Assembly: GCF_024298765.1 (NCBI RefSeq)
Contig: NZ_CP101210.1
Length of the DNA: 64,000 nucleotides
Source: Escherichia coli
GTDB taxonomy: Bacteria; Pseudomonadota; Gammaproteobacteria; Enterobacterales; Enterobacteriaceae
Strand: one strand, 5' to 3'
Shown: positions 29,932 to 39,560 of the stretch, piece by piece
Layout: every line of letters starts with the position of its first letter
Numbering within the stretch: the first letter of the stretch is position 1
The notes under the pieces: model-generated
The model's database searches: none
Told to the model about the DNA's origin: nothing
What the model saw: only the letters and a program-made list of their open reading frames with translations
Program-made: the position numbers and the translations under genes

Positions 29932-30236
29932 GATTGTGCTCCTTTTGAAAGATGTCAGTAAAATTAACACACGTTGTGAATGTCGTGTGTCCGGTAATGC
30001 GTTTTTACGGCAATAATGCCTACTTGAAATTGTACATATTTGTACTACACACTTTTAAATAAAGCGCCAATGAAAACGTTAACTTGCAGAATATATTCTT
30101 CGCCAACATGCCATTAAGAAAACATCAAGTTCCCGGCTTGCCAATTTGTTAACGCCCATTATAGTTATTCTTGCCCTCACTAAAAATTTTCATCCGTAAT
30201 TACCCCCAATAAAAATCCATTCTGGAGACGCTTAAG

Positions 30237-32213
30237 ATGCAGCTTAATCATATCGTTAAAAGTCTGCTAATAACGGGATTATTCACCACCAGTTCTTTAC
30301 CTCTCCTCGCGGCGGAAGCTCCTAAAGACGCCACCGCAGCCACACAACAAGCAAACAATTTACTCTACAACCAGTTGCCGTTTGCCGATAACACTGACTT
30401 TACTGATGCCCATAAAGGTTTTATTGCCCCTATCCCTCAAGACGTGATTAAGGGCGAACAAGGGAATGTTATCTGGGATCCACAACATTACGCTTTTATC
30501 AAAGAAGGCGATAAAGCCCCTGATACGGTGAATCCGAGTTTATGGCGTCAGGCGCAACTGATAAATATCAGCGGGTTATTCGAAGTAACTGAAGGTGTCT
30601 ATCAGATTCGCAATCTCGATCTATCAAATATGACCATCATTGAAGGCAAAGAGGGTATTACCGTCGTTGATCCCCTTGTTTCAGCAGAAACAGCCAAAGT
30701 GGGTATGGATCTCTATTACAAAAATCGCGGCAAAAAACCGGTAGTGGCGGTTATCTATACACACAGTCATGTCGATCACTACGGTGGTGTTCGTGGCGTA
30801 ATTGATGAAGCTGACGTTAAATCAGGCAAAGTTAAAATCTATGCGCCAGCCGGATTTTTGGAGGAAGCCGTTTCCGAAAACATCATGGCTGGCAATGTTA
30901 TGAGCCGACGAGCCAGTTATATGTATGGCAACTTATTGAAACCTGATGTTAAAGGCCAGGTGGGGGCTGGACTGGGAACGACTACTTCAGCAGGAACAGT
31001 CACGTTGATTGCTCCTACTAACTACATCACCAAAACCGGACAAATAGAAACTATTGACGGGTTGACTTATGATTTCCTGATGGCGCCAGGTTCTGAAGCG
31101 CCTTCTGAAATGCTGTGGTTTATTGAAGAAAAGAAACTGATCGAAACCGCTGAAGATGTCACGCACACCCTTCATAACACCTATTCGCTGCGTGGGGCTA
31201 AAATTCGCCAACCGCTGCCGTGGTCAAAATATATTAATGAAGCTCTCAATTTGTGGGGTGATAAAGCCGAGATTATTCTCGCTCAACATCACTGGCCAAC
31301 CTGGGGCAACGATAACGTGGTCAAACTGCTTAAAAGCCAGCGTGATTTGTATCGTTACATCAATGATCAAACTCTGCGCATGGCAAATCAAGGGATGACC
31401 CGTGATGAAATTGCCGCAAACTTTAAACTTCCCTCTTCACTGGCTAACACCTGGGCGAATCGCGGCTATTACGGTTCGGTAAGTCATGACGTGAAAGCAA
31501 CTTACGTGCTTTATCTCGGCTGGTTTGATGGTAACCCCGCGACGCTTGATGAACTGCCGCCAGAAGAAGGCGCAAAAAAATTCGTCGAGTATATGGGCGG
31601 TGCTGATGCCATTTTACAGAAAGCCAAACAGGATTATGACCAGGGTAATTTCCGCTGGGTTGCCCAAGTTGTTAGTAAGGTGGTGTTTGCCGATCCAAAC
31701 AACCAGGCAGCGAGAGATCTGGAAGCTGATGCGCTTGAGCAGTTAGGCTATCAGGCTGAATCTGGGCCGTGGCGTAATTTCTATCTCACTGGCGCACAGG
31801 AATTGCGTAATGGTGTACAAAAATTACCAACACCAAATACTGCCAGCCCAGACACCGTGCGTGCGATGACGCCGGAGATGTTCTTTGATTATCTTGCCGT
31901 CCATATTAATGGTGAGAAAGCGGCAGATGCCAAAACCGTGTTGAATTTCGATTTTGGTGAAGATGGCGGCACCTATAAAGTGGAGCTTGAAAATGGTGTT
32001 CTCAATCATACAGCTGGTGTAGAGGCTTCGGATGCTGATGCCACTATCACTCTGTCTCGTGATGTATTGAACAAAATTGTACTGAAAGAAGAGACGCTGA
32101 AAGAAGCCACGGCCAAAGGAGATGTCAAAATTACTGGCAATGCGGAAAAACTCAACGAGCTGTTAGGTTATATGGATAATTTTGAATTTTGGTTCAATAT
32201 AGTGACACCATAA
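30237..32213 (+). CDS. Secreted MBL-fold alkyl/aryl-sulfatase-like protein (SdsA1/YjcS family)
   Basis: 658-aa ORF; N-terminal signal peptide; metallo-beta-lactamase motif THSHVDHYGG; C-terminal SCP2-like region; not part of the K-12 gene order at this position as I recall it. Confidence 0.8.
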   Translation: MQLNHIVKSLLITGLFTTSSLPLLAAEAPKDATAATQQANNLLYNQLPFADNTDFTDAHKGFIAPIPQDVIKGEQGNVIWDPQHYAFIKEGDKAPDTVNPSLWRQAQLINISGLFEVTEGVYQIRNLDLSNMTIIEGKEGITVVDPLVSAETAKVGMDLYYKNRGKKPVVAVIYTHSHVDHYGGVRGVIDEADVKSGKVKIYAPAGFLEEAVSENIMAGNVMSRRASYMYGNLLKPDVKGQVGAGLGTTTSAGTVTLIAPTNYITKTGQIETIDGLTYDFLMAPGSEAPSEMLWFIEEKKLIETAEDVTHTLHNTYSLRGAKIRQPLPWSKYINEALNLWGDKAEIILAQHHWPTWGNDNVVKLLKSQRDLYRYINDQTLRMANQGMTRDEIAANFKLPSSLANTWANRGYYGSVSHDVKATYVLYLGWFDGNPATLDELPPEEGAKKFVEYMGGADAILQKAKQDYDQGNFRWVAQVVSKVVFADPNNQAARDLEADALEQLGYQAESGPWRNFYLTGAQELRNGVQKLPTPNTASPDTVRAMTPEMFFDYLAVHINGEKAADAKTVLNFDFGEDGGTYKVELENGVLNHTAGVEASDADATITLSRDVLNKIVLKEETLKEATAKGDVKITGNAEKLNELLGYMDNFEFWFNIVTP

Positions 32214-32227
32214 ATTTACTGCATACC

Positions 32228-32250
32228 GGGCAGGTATCCTGCCCTTTTTT
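32228..32250 (+). terminator. Rho-independent terminator after the sulfatase-like gene
   Basis: Hairpin gggcagg-tatc-ctgccc followed by tttttt. Confidence 0.75.
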
Positions 32251-32307
32251 GGTTAAAAAATGGCTGAACGAAGAAAAACGCATCACTCATGGAAAACCCG
32301 CCGCGAT

Positions 32308-33357
32308 ATGGTTATTCGCGGCATGACGATTAGTTTGCCATGGTTTGCTTTTATCAATGTCAGTTTTGCATTGATAATTTTGCTGCGCCGTGTTCTGTTT
32401 AATGACCTTACTCCACCCTGGTTAAATGAAAAAAGCCTTATACATTCTATTGATATATCTGCAACGGGTATTCTGCTAATTTGCAGTGGTTTACTACTCA
32501 TCCCTCGGCAAAAAACATTACCTATCCAGGTGCTATTAGTTGCCCTGAGCCTGCTATGGTCATGGTGTAGTTATCACTTTATTGCGTACTGGACGCTGCA
32601 GTTTGCTTATCCACTATGTGTATTATTAATGCTTAGTGGCGTTGTCGCACTTTATTTCCATACCCCATCATTGCTCGCATTTGTCATTCCCTTATGGTTC
32701 ACCACTCCAATAGCGAGTCTTATGCTTAATCAACAGATCAATATTCATTTTGCTGTTGTATGGTGTATTTTTTCACTGGCGCTATATGGTGGGCGACTCA
32801 TTTTGTTACGTTGGTTTGAAGAAGCATGGGTACAAAACAGTTATAACAACCAGTTAATTAATCGCCTTGATGCATTAGCACATCGTGATCCTTTAACTGG
32901 GATAGCAAACCGACGTGCAATGAACAGTATCTTACACGACGCGATAGATAACGGCGGGTCATTTGCTCTTATTATGCTGGATGTCGATTTTTTTAAACGT
33001 TACAACGACACTTACGGGCATCCTGCTGGGGATCGTTGTCTAATACAAGTTGCCGACGCTCTACAGCGTTCAACTCGCCAGTCGGAGGATGTTGTTGTCC
33101 GTTATGGTGGCGAAGAGTTTGCCATCATACTTTTTAATGCAACATTGCCGGAAGCAGAGACGGTAGCAGCCAGAGTGAAGCAAGAACTTAAACTGGCAGC
33201 TATCCCACATCAGGCATCTGCTGTTAATGCATTCGTTACGGTTAGTCAGGGGATTACCTGTTCTGCTCCCGCAAAAACGGCTGAACAAATTATTTCAGAT
33301 GCCGACGCTGCGTTATACCGGGCGAAAGAAAGTGGGCGAAATCGATGGGCTTTATAA
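32308..33357 (+). CDS. Membrane-anchored diguanylate cyclase (GGEEF), accessory
   Basis: ORF track gives 32260..33357 (365 aa); about 200 aa of polytopic membrane N-terminus followed by a GGDEF domain with an RYGGEEF active site and an I-site-like RxxD. Start uncertain because the ATG at 32260 directly abuts the upstream terminator; 32308 (MVIRGM...) is an alternative. Confidence 0.8.
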   Translation: MVIRGMTISLPWFAFINVSFALIILLRRVLFNDLTPPWLNEKSLIHSIDISATGILLICSGLLLIPRQKTLPIQVLLVALSLLWSWCSYHFIAYWTLQFAYPLCVLLMLSGVVALYFHTPSLLAFVIPLWFTTPIASLMLNQQINIHFAVVWCIFSLALYGGRLILLRWFEEAWVQNSYNNQLINRLDALAHRDPLTGIANRRAMNSILHDAIDNGGSFALIMLDVDFFKRYNDTYGHPAGDRCLIQVADALQRSTRQSEDVVVRYGGEEFAIILFNATLPEAETVAARVKQELKLAAIPHQASAVNAFVTVSQGITCSAPAKTAEQIISDADAALYRAKESGRNRWAL

Positions 33358-33430: not shown

Positions 33431-33982
33431 CTATCTTCTTAGCGATGTCTTTCTGGTATCACATTGGATCGGTGCAATTATTTTTCCTTTAATACCCATT
33501 ATGTTAAGAAATTCAGAAACAGCTGTAATCTCATTGGTTTTTTCATTCGTCTTGATCTTCCAAGGAATCTGACTGTGCATTATTGAGAACACACTAATAA
33601 CGTGAATCGCTCCCTTGCGACGACTCTTGTCATAAGAGTACCGGAGCGTTTTTCCATCAATTGCAATGACGTCTTTATCATCTGAAGAATGGCAGTCAAG
33701 CATCCAGTTAATAAAGCACTCATGAAATTTTGCAGGACTGATACAGGATACAACTCTGGCAATGGTATCGTGAACAGGAATACCATTATCAAAATCACCA
33801 TATTGCTTCAAAAAATCGAGATGTGTTTCCCCAAAATCCTCTATATCTTCCCAGCCTTCTGCACCCGAAATAACGGCACAAATAGTCAACAGTAGAATAT
33901 CCGATAATTTATGTTCCACTTTCCAGGCTTGTCTGTAATCGGGGATAATAGAAATATGTTCCATCAATTTTTTAAGTTCCAT
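33431..33982 (-). pseudogene. ydcC: Truncated H-repeat-associated (ISAs1-family transposase-like) gene, N-terminal fragment
   Basis: 183-aa ORF matching only the N-terminal half of the roughly 378-aa H-repeat protein; the remainder is missing where the DGC gene begins. Confidence 0.7.
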
Positions 33983-34222
33983 TTTGTTCTCCTTAATTAT
34001 GTAAGGAGTATTTGATCATGTATAAGCAATAAAAAACAGCTTTAGATAATGAGGAATATCTCAATTTTTAAACATAAAATGCGAATTATTTAGTACAAAA
34101 AAGCAGCGTTACGTGATCTTTCCATGGAAAAGAGAGTAATACACTGATTTTTAACGCAGATTGCCAGTGCTACCAACACTGACAATCTGCTCACCACAAG
34201 CAACTAACAGAGGTAGTTAATC

Positions 34223-34552
34223 ATGGCTGAACACGATATTACGCCAGAAGTCGCCATTTCCAAAACACAGCGCCGCTATAAAGTCGGCTATGTCAGAGCC
34301 CGCCACATAAACAGCAAAACCTACATGACCACGTACTACTCACGACACCCCAGCCTGAACCTTAAGGGCGACTGGCTGAAAGAGGCCGGATTTGATACCG
34401 GACGGGGTGTCACGGTGAAGATTTCGGAGGGGTGCCTGACCATCATCGCTGACAGTGACGAGGTGCAGGAACTGCGGGAGGAACTTTATCAGGTTAAACA
34501 GGTGGTTAAGGGGATGCGGAACGGGATGTTTAGTGTGCTGAACGAGAATTAA
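34223..34552 (+). CDS. SymE-family type I toxin-like protein (AbrB/SpoVT-fold)
   Basis: 109-aa ORF with RBS agagg; core LKGDWLKEAGFDTGRGVTVKISEGCLTIIA closely parallels E. coli SymE as I recall it ([30 protein letters not shown]). Confidence 0.65.
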   Translation: MAEHDITPEVAISKTQRRYKVGYVRARHINSKTYMTTYYSRHPSLNLKGDWLKEAGFDTGRGVTVKISEGCLTIIADSDEVQELREELYQVKQVVKGMRNGMFSVLNEN

Positions 34553-34905: not shown

Positions 34906-35312
34906 CTATATCTATCCTCACCATTGTCCCATCAGAACGTTTAATATTTATATGAGGCAAAGAACCATGCCCTGTGCCTTTATGGTCATCATGACCATAT
35001 ACACGACCAGTATTAGAATCAATAGGGTAACCTTTCCTATAACGGACAGTACCATCTCTTTTCTTAAATTGTTCCATCTTATGTTTTTTTCTAATACCGG
35101 CGGCATCCTGCGAACCGATCCCTCTTACTTTTTGAGCATCAGGAAAGGCCTCCATCAATAAATCATGGGCTTCCTGTTTTGATTTAACTGTGACAACGGT
35201 TCCTTGAGGCCCCTCTCGCAAAGATTTCGCGTTTTTGGAACATGCAGTCAGTCCCAGCGGATCGATCCAAGAGAGCGGATTCGGCGCGTATTGGTAGAGG
35301 TTTATTCCCCCC
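34898..35312 (-). CDS. Rhs C-terminal segment (core end INLYQYAPNPLSWIDPLGL plus variable toxin tip), out of frame with the Rhs core ORF
   Basis: Reading frame B on the minus strand gives GGINLYQYAPNPLSWIDPLGL followed by about 117 aa of His-rich variable tip (YGHDDHKGTGHGSLPH); it is joined to the core only if the G7 run at 35307..35313 is read as G6. Confidence 0.65.
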
Positions 35313-38300
35313 CGCTAACCCTATCGGATCCGTTACCATGAACCGCCCGACATCCGGATCATAGTACCTGTGCAGATTGTAATGCAGTCCCGTTTCCCTG
35401 TCGAGGTACTGTCCCTGGTAGCGCAGGTTCTGCGCCACCCCGCCGTGGTCCTTCTCCTGTATCGTGTTACCCCAGACCTGATACCCCGTCTCCCACACGA
35501 TTTTCCCGTCACTGTCCGTCATCTCTTCCGGCGCGCCGTTCACATCCGTGTGAAAATACAGTATCCGGTTCGGGCCCTCTTTGCCCGCCTTATCCACCCG
35601 CGCCAGCGGTTCATAACTCCCCGGGTCCCTGTAGATGTACAGGCTGTCTGTTCCCTCCGGCCTGCTCTCCTGCGCCAGCCGCATTCCGTCCCATAAAAAT
35701 GCCGTCCGGTTGTACGGTTTACCGTCAGGGCTGATGTGCTGTTTTTCCGTCCGCCTCCCCAGCGCATCGTACACATACCGGTACGTTCCCCGCGCTGTCG
35801 TCACTTCCACCATCCGGTGTTCCGCATCATAACGGTAACTCTGCGTGCCGCTCCGCCCCTCCTTTTCCACCGCACGGCCAAATTCGTCGTAACGGTAGTG
35901 CACACCACGGTAAGACATCAGCCGGTTGAACGGCACCACGCTGTTTTCTGCCGTGGCCCTTTCCCCCGCGCGCCGCCCCAGCAGGTTTCCCGCCGCGTCG
36001 TACTGCCAGCTCGCCAGATACCCCTCATCCTCCGAGCGGCACGCCGTGATGCGCCCCGTGGGGTCGTAGAAGTAATCCGTTTCCCCCCGCCGGCTGTGCC
36101 GCGTCTTCAGCAGTTCATCCTCGCCACTGTAGCTGTACTGCCGGTCCGTGAACGTCTCCGGTACCACCCCGCGCATCCCGCTGTATGTCTCCCTGCGCTT
36201 CAGCCGCCCGGCGGGGTCGTAAAGCTGCCGCGTGCTCAGTCGCCCCTGACTTCTGAGCACTTCACGGTGCAGGGCGTCACGAGTGAACTCGCTGATGACC
36301 TCCCGGTCCAGATTTATCTGCTGGAGATGGCCGCTGCCGTAGTACAGATGACGCTGCGTTCTGCCGTCCGGAAAGGTGGTGGCTGTCCGGTTGCTGAGTT
36401 CATCGTACTGATGGGTCAGGACGCCCTGCGCCGTCTCCTCAGTCAGCATCCGCCCCAGTCTGTCGTAACTGAAACGGATAATCTCCGGTGCGTCTGTTTC
36501 CCCGGCATCCGACCGTCGGCGGCGGATTTCCAGTAACTGGTCTGCCGCATCATGGACGTATTCCGTACGGCTATCGGCTGTCTCCTTTGCCGTGAGCCGG
36601 CCCGCCGCATCACGTGCCAGCCGGTGGCGGATTTCACCGCCCCGGTCCCCGGTGAACACCACTTCCGTGACCGCGTTCAGCGCGTTGTAGCGGTACGTCT
36701 GGCGGCAGCCGTCCGGATTTATCTGCTCCGCCAGACGGTCCAGCACGTCATGGCGGAACCGGTAGCTTTCTCCGTTCTCGTTTGTCAGCGTGACCAGACG
36801 CCCGTAAGCATCGTACCCGAACGCCGTCCTGCGCCCCGTCGCGTCTGTCCGGCTGCGCACCCGGCCCTGCCCGTCCCGCTGCCAGCGCGTTATCCTCCCC
36901 ATCGGGCTGGTGTACTTCACCAGCCTGCCCGCCGCGTCCGACTGGTAATTCACCGTGCGGCCGTCCGCCAGTATCACCTCCGTCAGGTGGCCGCTGTCGT
37001 CATACCCGTAGCGCGTGCTGTGGCTCTGCGCGTCTGTCATCCGTATCAGCCGCGTGCGTTCGTCGTAGAACCAGGCCGTCTGCGAGCCGGAACAGTCCGT
37101 GTGCCGCATGAGCTGCCCGTCTTCGTTCCACTGAAGGTATTTATTCCCCCCGCGCGCATCGGTTATCTGCACCACCTGGCCGTGGCGGTCATACTGATAC
37201 CGGGTGTTCTGCTGCAGCGGGTCGGTCACCGCAAGAAGATTGCCGCGTTCATCGTACTCACAGCACCAGCTGTTCCCCGCCGCGTCCACCTCCGTTTCCG
37301 GCTGGTGCCACACCGGGTGCCACTGTGTCTGTGCCACCCGCCCCAGCGGGTCGTGCGTCTCCGTGATATGCCCCTGCCGGTCATACACATAGCGCCATTT
37401 GCCGCCCTGCGCATCGGTCATTCCCAGTAACAGCCGTTCTTCGTCGCTCCAGCGGAACGTCGTCACCTGCCCGGCTTCGTCCTGGTACGCCGTCACCTGA
37501 TTCTGCGCGTCCCACTGATGATAACGCGTGCGCCCCAGCCCGTCCGTCACGCACAGCCTGCGTGACGCCAGGCTCCACGCCAGCCGGTACTGTTCACCGC
37601 TGTCCGTGTGGTGCCCCGTCACCCGCCACGCTGCGTCATCCGGGCCTTCATACCAGCTCCACTGGTAATAATACCCTTCGCCGCCCGGCTGGCGGTGCAG
37701 GGTCATGCAGTGGTTTTCGTCGTAAGCAAACTCGCGCAGCAGGTGTCCCGTGCTGTCGTACACGCCGTTCAGGTCGCCGGCCTCGTCATAGCGGTAACGA
37801 CGCAGCAGTAAAGGAGCCGTCTCAGGGAAATGCTGATAAATCTGTGTCACCCGCCGGGGATGCGCCGCCAGTTCATAATGCAGACGGATGCACGGACGCT
37901 GCTGTTCACCGCTGATTTGCGTGATGCGCCCCAGCTCGTCGTAGTACAGATTCAGACAGTTGCTGTTGCGGTCGCCCAGCATTTTCAGCCGCTGGCGCTG
38001 CGGGTGATGCGGGTCGGCTTCAAACAGAAAAAACTGCCCGTCATCGCTGCTGATAAGCCAGTGCCCCTGCTCACCCCGCCTTACCGCCAGTCCTTCGCCG
38101 GGGCTGTAAAACCCGCTCCCCGGCAGCACGGCCTCCATATCCAGGCGTCGCCCCATGCCCGACACAAAGGTCATGCAGTTTTCGTCAGCAGTACCCGGCG
38201 TGCGCCCGAGGCTGACTTCATACATCACGCTCCAGCCCTGCCCGAACATCCCTTCCGTGCGGTCGTCACGACTGCTGTACACGCGCTGCCAGTCCAGCGG

Positions 38301-39560
38301 AAAGTGGCCCGGCAGACTGAAATCGAAGTCATCGTCATCGGCCAGATATTTGGCTCCGGTGGCGGCATTGACCGGATGCGGAAGGGCACTGATGGCCTTC
38401 TGCGTCATCACCCCCATCCCGACACTGGCAGCAAAACAGGCGATTTTAGAAAGCATTTTGCCCGGGCGAAGAAACATCAGCGCCACGGTTGCCACCAGGG
38501 TTATCTGCGACCTGCCGCTTCTGATATCCCTGACCACCAGTAACGGACCGCCAATGCGGACATCCGGTGACACAAACGCCCCGTTCCCCGGCTCATTCAC
38601 CACCCTGGCCTCGCAGGTGCAGCGTGCCCCGCTGCGTGCCGCCGGCTGGCTGTTGATACGCACATCCCGCGCGCCTTCCGCGATATATTCCGCTGCGGGC
38701 GGTTCATCATCGCCTTTGAACAGATTACTGATGCTGCCAATAACCGCATTCACTCCCTGAAAGGCGGTTTCCAGCATACCGTCCGGACTCAGCAGGTTAA
38801 GGGCCGTTCCCAGGGGGTCATCCAGAAAGGCGGCTTTTTTTTGTGCGAGAAACTGCGTCAGTGAGGAGGGATGTTTATGGCAGTCGATTTTATCGTCAGG
38901 GGTCGGGGTGGAGCCCGGGGCCGCACTGGCCACGGTGGGCTGCCATAGTTCCGACACAAAATGTGTCACGCCATCCACCATTTCAGAACGCCCTTCTTCC
39001 GTACTGAGCTGGTCGTGCAGCGCCCGGGACATCAGCACAGGCCCTGTCACCGGGTTAACCGCCAGGGCTATGGCCCCCGCCATTTCCAGATATTCCCCGG
39101 CCACATCCAGGAACGTTCTGGCATCCTCCTGACGCTGCGCTTCTTCCTGTTCCGCCTTCGCCTGCGCCTCCTGCGCCTCAATGTCCTGCCGCGATGCCGC
39201 AGTCGCCGCGGCCCGCGCGGCAGGTTTGCTGTTGATCCATGTGTCGCCAGAGCCGGTGAGGATGTAACCTTCAATCTGAGGCGGGAAAAGCATATTTGCG
39301 AGGTCTGAACAGACTTCGCTGACCGTGTCTGTCACGCCGGTGTACACCATCGCCACACCCGCCACAAAACCGGTCAGCACGACGGCCGTGCACCCCATCG
39401 TGATCCCCACTGACGCCGCCAGTAACGAGGTTGTGCCGACAATGAGGGCATCAATAACGACATTTGCGGCCACCTCCAGCACCGCCCCCAGCACATCTGC
39501 CATAAACGACGTATGCAGCAGGGCATCACCCTGCCTTGCCGCCCAGAATGCCTCTTCCAT
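35184..39560 (-). CDS. Rhs-family T6SS effector core (prePAAR motif, TM helices, PAAR, YD repeats), as the ORF in the present frame
   Basis: 1458-aa ORF; N-terminus MEEAFWAARQGDALLH matches the prePAAR AARxxDxxxH motif; hydrophobic helices follow; literal PAAR motifs; numerous YD/RHS repeats; core end RYYDPDVGRFMVTDPIGLAGG; after the G-run the frame runs 41 unrelated codons to a stop at 35184. Occupies the K-12 rhsE position by synteny. Confidence 0.85.
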   Translation of the reverse strand: MEEAFWAARQGDALLHTSFMADVLGAVLEVAANVVIDALIVGTTSLLAASVGITMGCTAVVLTGFVAGVAMVYTGVTDTVSEVCSDLANMLFPPQIEGYILTGSGDTWINSKPAARAAATAASRQDIEAQEAQAKAEQEEAQRQEDARTFLDVAGEYLEMAGAIALAVNPVTGPVLMSRALHDQLSTEEGRSEMVDGVTHFVSELWQPTVASAAPGSTPTPDDKIDCHKHPSSLTQFLAQKKAAFLDDPLGTALNLLSPDGMLETAFQGVNAVIGSISNLFKGDDEPPAAEYIAEGARDVRINSQPAARSGARCTCEARVVNEPGNGAFVSPDVRIGGPLLVVRDIRSGRSQITLVATVALMFLRPGKMLSKIACFAASVGMGVMTQKAISALPHPVNAATGAKYLADDDDFDFSLPGHFPLDWQRVYSSRDDRTEGMFGQGWSVMYEVSLGRTPGTADENCMTFVSGMGRRLDMEAVLPGSGFYSPGEGLAVRRGEQGHWLISSDDGQFFLFEADPHHPQRQRLKMLGDRNSNCLNLYYDELGRITQISGEQQRPCIRLHYELAAHPRRVTQIYQHFPETAPLLLRRYRYDEAGDLNGVYDSTGHLLREFAYDENHCMTLHRQPGGEGYYYQWSWYEGPDDAAWRVTGHHTDSGEQYRLAWSLASRRLCVTDGLGRTRYHQWDAQNQVTAYQDEAGQVTTFRWSDEERLLLGMTDAQGGKWRYVYDRQGHITETHDPLGRVAQTQWHPVWHQPETEVDAAGNSWCCEYDERGNLLAVTDPLQQNTRYQYDRHGQVVQITDARGGNKYLQWNEDGQLMRHTDCSGSQTAWFYDERTRLIRMTDAQSHSTRYGYDDSGHLTEVILADGRTVNYQSDAAGRLVKYTSPMGRITRWQRDGQGRVRSRTDATGRRTAFGYDAYGRLVTLTNENGESYRFRHDVLDRLAEQINPDGCRQTYRYNALNAVTEVVFTGDRGGEIRHRLARDAAGRLTAKETADSRTEYVHDAADQLLEIRRRRSDAGETDAPEIIRFSYDRLGRMLTEETAQGVLTHQYDELSNRTATTFPDGRTQRHLYYGSGHLQQINLDREVISEFTRDALHREVLRSQGRLSTRQLYDPAGRLKRRETYSGMRGVVPETFTDRQYSYSGEDELLKTRHSRRGETDYFYDPTGRITACRSEDEGYLASWQYDAAGNLLGRRAGERATAENSVVPFNRLMSYRGVHYRYDEFGRAVEKEGRSGTQSYRYDAEHRMVEVTTARGTYRYVYDALGRRTEKQHISPDGKPYNRTAFLWDGMRLAQESRPEGTDSLYIYRDPGSYEPLARVDKAGKEGPNRILYFHTDVNGAPEEMTDSDGKIVWETGYQVWGNTIQEKDHGGVAQNLRYQGQYLDRETGLHYNLHRYYDPDVGRFMVTDPIGLAGGNKPLPIRAESALLDRSAGTDCMFQKREIFARGASRNRCHS

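Follow-up and report, generated by a model that had tools for sequence, protein, structure and literature searches.

The question raised by this locus is how a diguanylate cyclase gene is expressed when its reading frame opens just behind a terminator-like hairpin, and from which codon it is translated. The setting is a sulfatase-cyclase gene pair at the pptA/rhsE locus of the Escherichia coli chromosome, analyzed here within a window of 64 kb (the whole stretch of DNA under study). The longest cyclase open reading frame (ORF) runs from 32260 to 33357 on the plus strand and encodes 365 amino acids, and an earlier, sequence-only reading of the window had placed a hairpin and T-run directly ahead of its ATG at 32260. 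We find both features where they were reported, although the gap between T-run and ATG, given there as 10 nt, is in fact 9 nt (GGTTAAAAA, 32251 to 32259). Two explanations had been offered: expression by read-through from the sulfatase gene, or translation from a downstream Met (32308 or 32323) served by a promoter inside the 5' end of the cyclase gene. The arrangement is an ordinary question of operon structure and start-codon annotation, and we address its parts in turn.

The terminator-like element spans 32228 to 32250 on the plus strand. Its hairpin (32228 to 32244; stem GGGCAGG/CCTGCCC, 3-nt loop TAT) has seven pairs, six of them G-C, folds with a predicted energy of −13.5 kcal/mol (fold z-score, −1.9), and is followed directly by a run of six T's (32245 to 32250). 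A terminator scan lists it as one of four terminator-like sites in 3.5 kb, where 3.0 are expected, and as a bare pattern the hairpin is not beyond chance. What argues for a real element is its position, beginning 14 nt past the stop codon of a 658-codon ORF, together with a stem that is conserved around a variable loop and between variable flanks. In five diverged Escherichia-type loci, with cyclases 77 to 92% identical to that of the window, the 14 stem bases are constant save for a single base in one locus (L083), and the loop reads TAT, TTT, TTC, or CTT; sequence differences are also seen in the 14 nt that precede the stem and in the bases that follow. The T-tract is kept as T4 to T6 in these five loci (TTTTTT, TTTTCT, or TTTTT). 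The element thus combines a GC-rich stem and T run with a place just 3' of a stop codon and conservation in relatives, as is typical of intrinsic terminators, and we read it as a putative partial intercistronic terminator.

A REP-like repeat is ruled out, the hairpin being single copy within the 64-kb window, and a search for RNA families and riboswitches returned no Rfam match between the sulfatase and cyclase genes. The only antiterminator option is a weak 5-bp pairing (ATACC/GGTAT) that is conserved neither in the locus of E. coli SCPM-O-B-8794 (L002) nor in other variants, and it was rejected. In a more distant relative (L089, positions 2461 to 2501), the cyclase gene lies between yddH and pptA with the sulfatase absent, and a terminator-like hairpin is located 13 to 22 nt before the cyclase start codon.

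Upstream of the hairpin lies the gene that RefSeq names alkyl/aryl-sulfatase (30237 to 32213, plus strand; 658 amino acids; stop codon TAA at 32211 to 32213). By Pfam, its product combines a metallo-beta-lactamase fold (Lactamase_B) with alkyl-sulfatase dimerization (Alkyl_sulf_dimr) and C-terminal (Alkyl_sulf_C) domains, and its N terminus is hydrophobic and, to a reader of the sequence, resembles a putative signal peptide. About 70 nt 5' of the sulfatase ATG we observe a sigma-70-like sequence, TTGCCA-16-TATAGT (30138 to 30165, plus strand), with 10 of 12 consensus matches. The 700 nt upstream of the sulfatase contain four sigma-70-like sites compared with 1.5 expected, counting consensus match alone, and the site at 30138 to 30165 is the best promoter candidate for the sulfatase and, by extension, for the presumed two-gene unit as a whole. 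In E. coli SCPM-O-B-8794 (L002, 979 to 2951), the sulfatase is recovered as two overlapping tblastn pieces (residues 1 to 63 and 61 to 658), which suggests that this copy of the gene is frameshifted; the cyclase ORF downstream of it is intact.

Between the hairpin and the cyclase gene, the search for promoters was empty. A lenient scan for the sigma-70-type consensus alone (7 or more matches out of 12, with a spacer length of 15 to 19 nt), for which the background is about 1.9 hits per 100 nt in the window, places no −10 element with its end between 32217 and 32305, and a standard sigma-70 scan likewise finds none from the terminator to the second in-frame ATG of the cyclase (M17, at 32308). 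The remark that the terminator leaves no room for a promoter behind it is borne out by these scans. The only promoter-like sites nearby, with ends at 32203 and 32216, fall within the sulfatase coding sequence or shortly beyond it and were set aside, since both precede the hairpin and their transcripts would still run into the terminator. The TATAGT of the candidate sites upstream of the hairpin is replaced by a synonymous-site variant, TATTGT, in L002, L082, and L083/84. An internal candidate, TTATCA-16-GATAAT (32351 to 32378), would leave the next in-frame Met only at about residue 134, with the MASE5 domain beginning at residue 25, and was rejected; a leaderless mRNA from 32260 was rejected as well, there being no −10 element at the required place.

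Consensus scans do miss weak, activator-dependent, and alternative-sigma promoters, and the E. coli cyclase genes dgcX and yneF are RpoS dependent (PMC4287979). A non-consensus or RpoS-type promoter belonging to the cyclase itself, overlapping the terminator or lying in the first codons, would yield a transcript from 3' of 32250 that is translated from M17. In its favor, TATAAG or TATAAA occurs immediately 3' of the T-run in some Escherichia-type variants, but the motif has no −35 partner in those variants and is absent from both the window and L002. Together with the negative outcome of the lenient scan in the window, and with Enterobacter and Leclercia spacers that are too small for any promoter, this makes a promoter of the cyclase's own improbable.

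Comparison across genera bears directly on the read-through explanation. The genome-collection scan yielded six useful loci, the remainder being generic GGDEF hits. In the Escherichia variants (L002, L087, L082, and L083/84), the sulfatase gene lies directly 5' of the cyclase gene on the same strand, and the same tandem is found in Enterobacter (L085; 55-nt gap to the long-form ATG) and Leclercia (L086; 40-nt gap to the M17 equivalent). In the tandem loci of all three genera, 40 to 55 nt separate the sulfatase stop from the first candidate cyclase start (46 nt to ATG 32260 in the window), and each spacer holds a GC-rich hairpin, which in Enterobacter and Leclercia (9 bp in the latter) has no T-run. 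Co-transcription is the natural reading for these two genera, since T-runs are missing there and the spacers are too short for a promoter. In Salmonella (L090), the pair is adjacent and divergent, with 285 nt of shared upstream region. The sulfatase is absent in Enterobacter cloacae (L003), where the cyclase follows the terminator of another gene and a promoter-like TTGAGG-16-TATAGT is present 5' of the long-form ATG (one found, 0.1 expected); it is also absent from the loci L004, L088, L089, and L091. The tandem loci thus look like operons, and the loci with no sulfatase gene 5' of the cyclase have upstream sequence of their own, which supports co-transcription in E. coli. As expected for an operon, the two genes share a strand and a short spacer, show no sigma-70-like site for the cyclase, and are kept in tandem across taxa. 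With the candidate promoter 5' of the sulfatase added to these features, the read-through half of the sequence-only reading is, by this indirect evidence, better supported than its internal-promoter half.

The cyclase ORF has in-frame ATGs at 32260, at 32308 (codon 17, M17), and at 32323 (codon 22, M22). In an alignment of 29 homologues with 47 to 99% identity, the M22 position (32323 to 32325, plus strand) is Leu in most and Ile in one, and the downstream start once proposed at this codon is excluded. M17 (32308 to 32310, plus strand) and the adjoining V18 are invariant in all 29, and PGAP starts the gene at 32308 in every E. coli record examined, giving the 349-aa RefSeq protein WP_000236739.1. 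The second explanation to be weighed is therefore that translation begins at M17 on a read-through transcript, with 32260 to 32307 (48 nt) forming a 5' leader and the upstream ATG being incidental in E. coli. Besides the invariance of M17 and V18 and the choice made by PGAP, this is favored by Leclercia (L086), which has no ATG 5' of the M17 equivalent; the N-terminal tail is dispensable at least in that genus. NCBI annotation of the orthologue group is inconsistent: the form starting at M17 (349 aa) is found in E. coli and Leclercia, and a long form (368 to 376 aa), which speaks for 32260, in Enterobacter, Salmonella, and Hafnia; a Pantoea record of 353 aa aligns from the M17 position.

Against a start at M17 alone, several observations indicate that the 16-codon N-terminal extension (MAERRKTHHSWKTRRD, 32260 to 32307, plus strand) is probably coding and under purifying selection in orthologues. 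An in-frame ATG lies 16 to 23 codons 5' of M17, with no stop between, in all enterobacterial orthologues examined except Leclercia, and the differences in extension length are multiples of three, among them a 6-nt in-frame indel between the window and an 81%-identical relative. Two residues are conserved at fixed distances from M17: a Trp at −6, seen in Escherichia, Enterobacter, Salmonella, Hafnia, Pantoea, and two further lineages, and an Arg at −3 whose codon varies synonymously among CGC, CGA, and CGT. The 32280 G>T change, the most frequent E. coli polymorphism in the 151-nt stretch, is likewise synonymous in the extension frame (ACG to ACT). In Mangrovibacter, Aeromonas, and Enterobacter sp. 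BIGb0383, there is no Met at the M17 position and the ORFs reach about 27 to 30 codons 5' of the first helix. Counts of in-frame stops in the three frames (0, 2, and 20) are a weak discriminator.

Substitution rates point in the same direction, with one qualification. Extension dN/dS is below 1 in six of the seven orthologue pairs tested. It is as low as 0.02 between Enterobacter L085 and L003 (0.13 in the following 45 codons), where all nine differences fall at third positions and eight are synonymous, one not; between the window and L002, the value is 0.21 (following 45 codons, 0.15), and between L087 and L083 it is 1.25 (following 45 codons, 0.19). Amino acid identity in the Enterobacter group is 0.59 for the extension and 0.63 for the MASE5 part, and in the Escherichia clade it is 0.56 versus 0.80. 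Within the Escherichia clade, purifying selection is clearly stronger from M17 onward, and this weaker constraint 5' of M17 is what a start at M17 would predict, whereas the very strong constraint on the extension in Enterobacter is not.

Predicted accessibility also argues for the upstream ATG. The predicted cost of opening the region from −15 to +12 is 5.8 kcal/mol at 32260 versus 13.5 kcal/mol at 32308, and by the same measure the long-form start is more open than M17 in 10 of 12 loci. ATG 32308 sits in the 9-nt loop of a perfect 7-bp hairpin (GCCGCGA/TCGCGGC, 32300 to 32322, plus strand) that is present in both minimum free energy (MFE) and centroid folds. This hairpin is kept in L002 with one G-U pair and absent from more distant loci, and for that reason is probably incidental. 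Shine-Dalgarno strengths of the candidate starts are all weak (−1.5 to −6 kcal/mol), and neither 32260 nor 32308 has a usable Shine-Dalgarno sequence; for the A-rich 9-nt spacer ahead of 32260, the best duplex with the anti-Shine-Dalgarno sequence is −2.2 kcal/mol. In Salmonella, Hafnia, and Pantoea, where the cyclase has its own upstream region, GAGG, AAGG, or GGGG is located 8 to 10 nt before the long-form ATG. Ribosomes that initiate at 32260 would in any case translate through M17.

On balance, we consider ATG 32260 the likely main start, a judgment of fair rather than high confidence. A sole start at 32308, with 32260 to 32307 as a leader whose ATG is incidental, is the less probable choice, though a serious contender. 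M17 may well be used as a secondary start. Of the earlier proposal of a downstream Met with an internal promoter, M17 itself retains its standing as an invariant residue and the RefSeq start; the promoter part was not upheld, since none is detected, the stretch from 32260 to 32308 looks coding in relatives, and M17 is predicted to be poorly accessible. With the main start at 32260, the extension can be read as a basic cytoplasmic tail, and the E. coli RefSeq model of the cyclase is probably 16 codons short at the N terminus.

The 365-aa protein matches the MASE5 family at residues 25 to 206 (PF17178, 150.8 bits against a cut-off of 25.2) and the GGDEF family at residues 207 to 362 (Pfam, E = 1.4e-48). 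The GGEEF motif (G283, G284, E285, E286, and F287; residues 283 to 287) is intact and invariant in the alignment of 29 homologues. The RxxD inhibitory site (I-site) five residues before the GGDEF motif is absent: the sequence reads RQSED-VVVRY-GGEEF (33070 to 33110, residues 273 to 287), that is, RxxxD, and orthologues read RTPED at this position. The RxxD I-site is a feature of a subclass and does not define the GGDEF family. As no canonical RxxD I-site is present, feedback inhibition by the product may be absent.

Taken together, we infer that the sulfatase and cyclase genes form one transcription unit, which would be driven from a promoter upstream of the sulfatase, with 30138 to 30165 as the best candidate. 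Most transcripts would end at the hairpin and T-run (32228 to 32250), giving abundant sulfatase mRNA with a protective 3' hairpin, and a minority would read through and carry the cyclase message. The cyclase would then be translated mainly from ATG 32260, in an A-rich and unstructured initiation region with no Shine-Dalgarno sequence, to give a 365-aa product whose basic cytoplasmic tail of 16 residues precedes the first membrane helix; M17 may act as a minor internal start. In combination, these features would hold the cyclase at a low level and couple its expression to the sulfatase. We favor co-transcription, partial read-through, and a main start at 32260 together as the best explanation of the locus, at slightly better than even confidence for the combination.

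A 1.7-kb query across the site has matches in 443 of 5,426 complete genomes (about 8%), with identity of at least 99% in 434 of the 443 and at least 80% of the query present in 438; among the matches listed, the first 25 records are 100% identical to the query. The MASE5-GGDEF cyclase is an accessory E. coli gene, possibly the one named “DgcY” by Povolotsky and Hengge (2016). In one E. coli genome (L093, NZ_AP042570.1, 2440 to 2960), we observe a decayed remnant of the locus in which most of the sulfatase is gone, the ATG equivalent to 32260 carries a mutation, and the cyclase, annotated as a pseudogene, lacks an internal segment. C-terminally frameshifted forms of the cyclase, of 328 and 243 aa, occur commonly in the protein database.

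Strain 104 shows the order narW-narI-yddE-nhoA-yddH-pptA, with the alkyl/aryl-sulfatase and GGDEF genes next and then genes for a frameshifted ISAs1 transposase, a SymE toxin, and an RHS-repeat protein. The ISAs1 (H-repeat) transposase gene of the window (33431 to 33982, minus strand) is shortened and frameshifted, is a pseudogene in RefSeq, and adjoins the RHS-repeat toxin gene (35184 to 39560, minus strand; 1458 aa), which has small ORFs downstream. This ISAs1/RHS stretch appears to be the rhsE-type region beside pptA, a region that in K-12 presumably has no sulfatase-cyclase pair. The SymE-family toxin ORF (34223 to 34552, plus strand) has Rfam matches antisense to it on the minus strand, namely SymR (34153 to 34228; 48 bits, below the gathering score) and isrA (34294 to 34422; 119 bits), an arrangement that resembles a type I toxin-antitoxin locus of the SymE/SymR kind, adjacent to the Rhs element.

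The hairpin and T6 have the look of a fairly efficient terminator, and very little transcription might pass it, leaving the gene almost silent. Taken to its end, this would mean that the cyclase is effectively silent in E. coli, an accessory gene decaying beside the Rhs/ISAs1 region, as might be expected from its presence in only about 8% of complete genomes, the commonness of the frameshifted 328- and 243-aa forms, the one degraded remnant, and the transposase pseudogene next door. However, nearly all of the matching genomes keep most of the query at near identity (438 and 434 of the 443 by the two measures above), gene-body dN/dS is 0.15 to 0.4 among Escherichia variants, and the GGEEF motif is intact. 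We regard decay to silence as very improbable, and partial read-through remains our preferred reading.

Besides its bearing on expression, the pairing may say something about function. The sulfatase is about 85% identical between genera and the cyclase about 50% (48 to 52%). The two genes are adjacent in four genera, even where their orientation is divergent in Salmonella, so a functional module is possible: the MASE5 domain might sense alkyl sulfates or released long-chain alcohols and thereby link exposure to detergents or lipids with c-di-GMP and biofilm formation. This is a speculative and, in our view, rather doubtful proposal; were it true, the partial terminator would hold the cyclase at a fixed, low level relative to the sulfatase. 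In the literature on MASE5, and on alkyl sulfatases with diguanylate cyclases, we found no paper linking the two. The alkyl sulfatase/MASE5 pairing is a side observation that offers a testable hint to the MASE5 signal and is worth a further look. Practical consequences of our analysis are small: constructs that clone or fuse the cyclase should include 32260, with no promoter activity to be expected from the short upstream spacer, and in expression studies the sulfatase and cyclase are best handled as one unit.

Partial terminators, or attenuators, between cistrons are known from E. coli, examples being T1 between rpsU and dnaG and the rplL-rpoB attenuator. The window resembles these systems in having a hairpin and T-run between co-oriented genes, across which read-through would likewise occur. 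As there, the distal gene would lack its own promoter, have a weak ribosome-binding site, and yield a low-abundance product, and read-through would set the ratio of the two products, a parallel that for the window is drawn from sequence features. Unlike in rpsU-dnaG and rplL-rpoB, the distance from T-run to start codon is unusually short (9 nt), and the partners, a membrane cyclase and a sulfatase with an apparent signal peptide, stand outside the core machinery of the cell.

The malE-malF operon, with its stabilizing intergenic hairpin of the REP type, provides a second comparison. As in malE-malF, the mRNA of the proximal gene would be protected by the GC-rich hairpin that follows it, and relative expression of the distal gene would be lowered; moreover, the spacer hairpins of Enterobacter and Leclercia come close to this arrangement in having no T-runs. 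The hairpin of the window differs from that of malE-malF in that it is not a REP element, is present once in 64 kb, and is accompanied by a T-run in E. coli.

Finally, enteroaggregative E. coli possesses an extra diguanylate cyclase, DgcX, a MASE4 protein with an I-site whose gene adjoins lambdoid prophages at attB and has a promoter of its own that gives very high expression (PMC4287979, PMC10459773). Identity of the two proteins is ruled out by the MASE4 domain and attB location of DgcX; the cyclase of the window has a MASE5 domain, is encoded at the pptA/rhsE locus, and, unlike DgcX, shows no visible promoter and no canonical I-site. What the two have in common is that each is an accessory, membrane-anchored GGDEF protein carried by a subset of E. 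coli strains.
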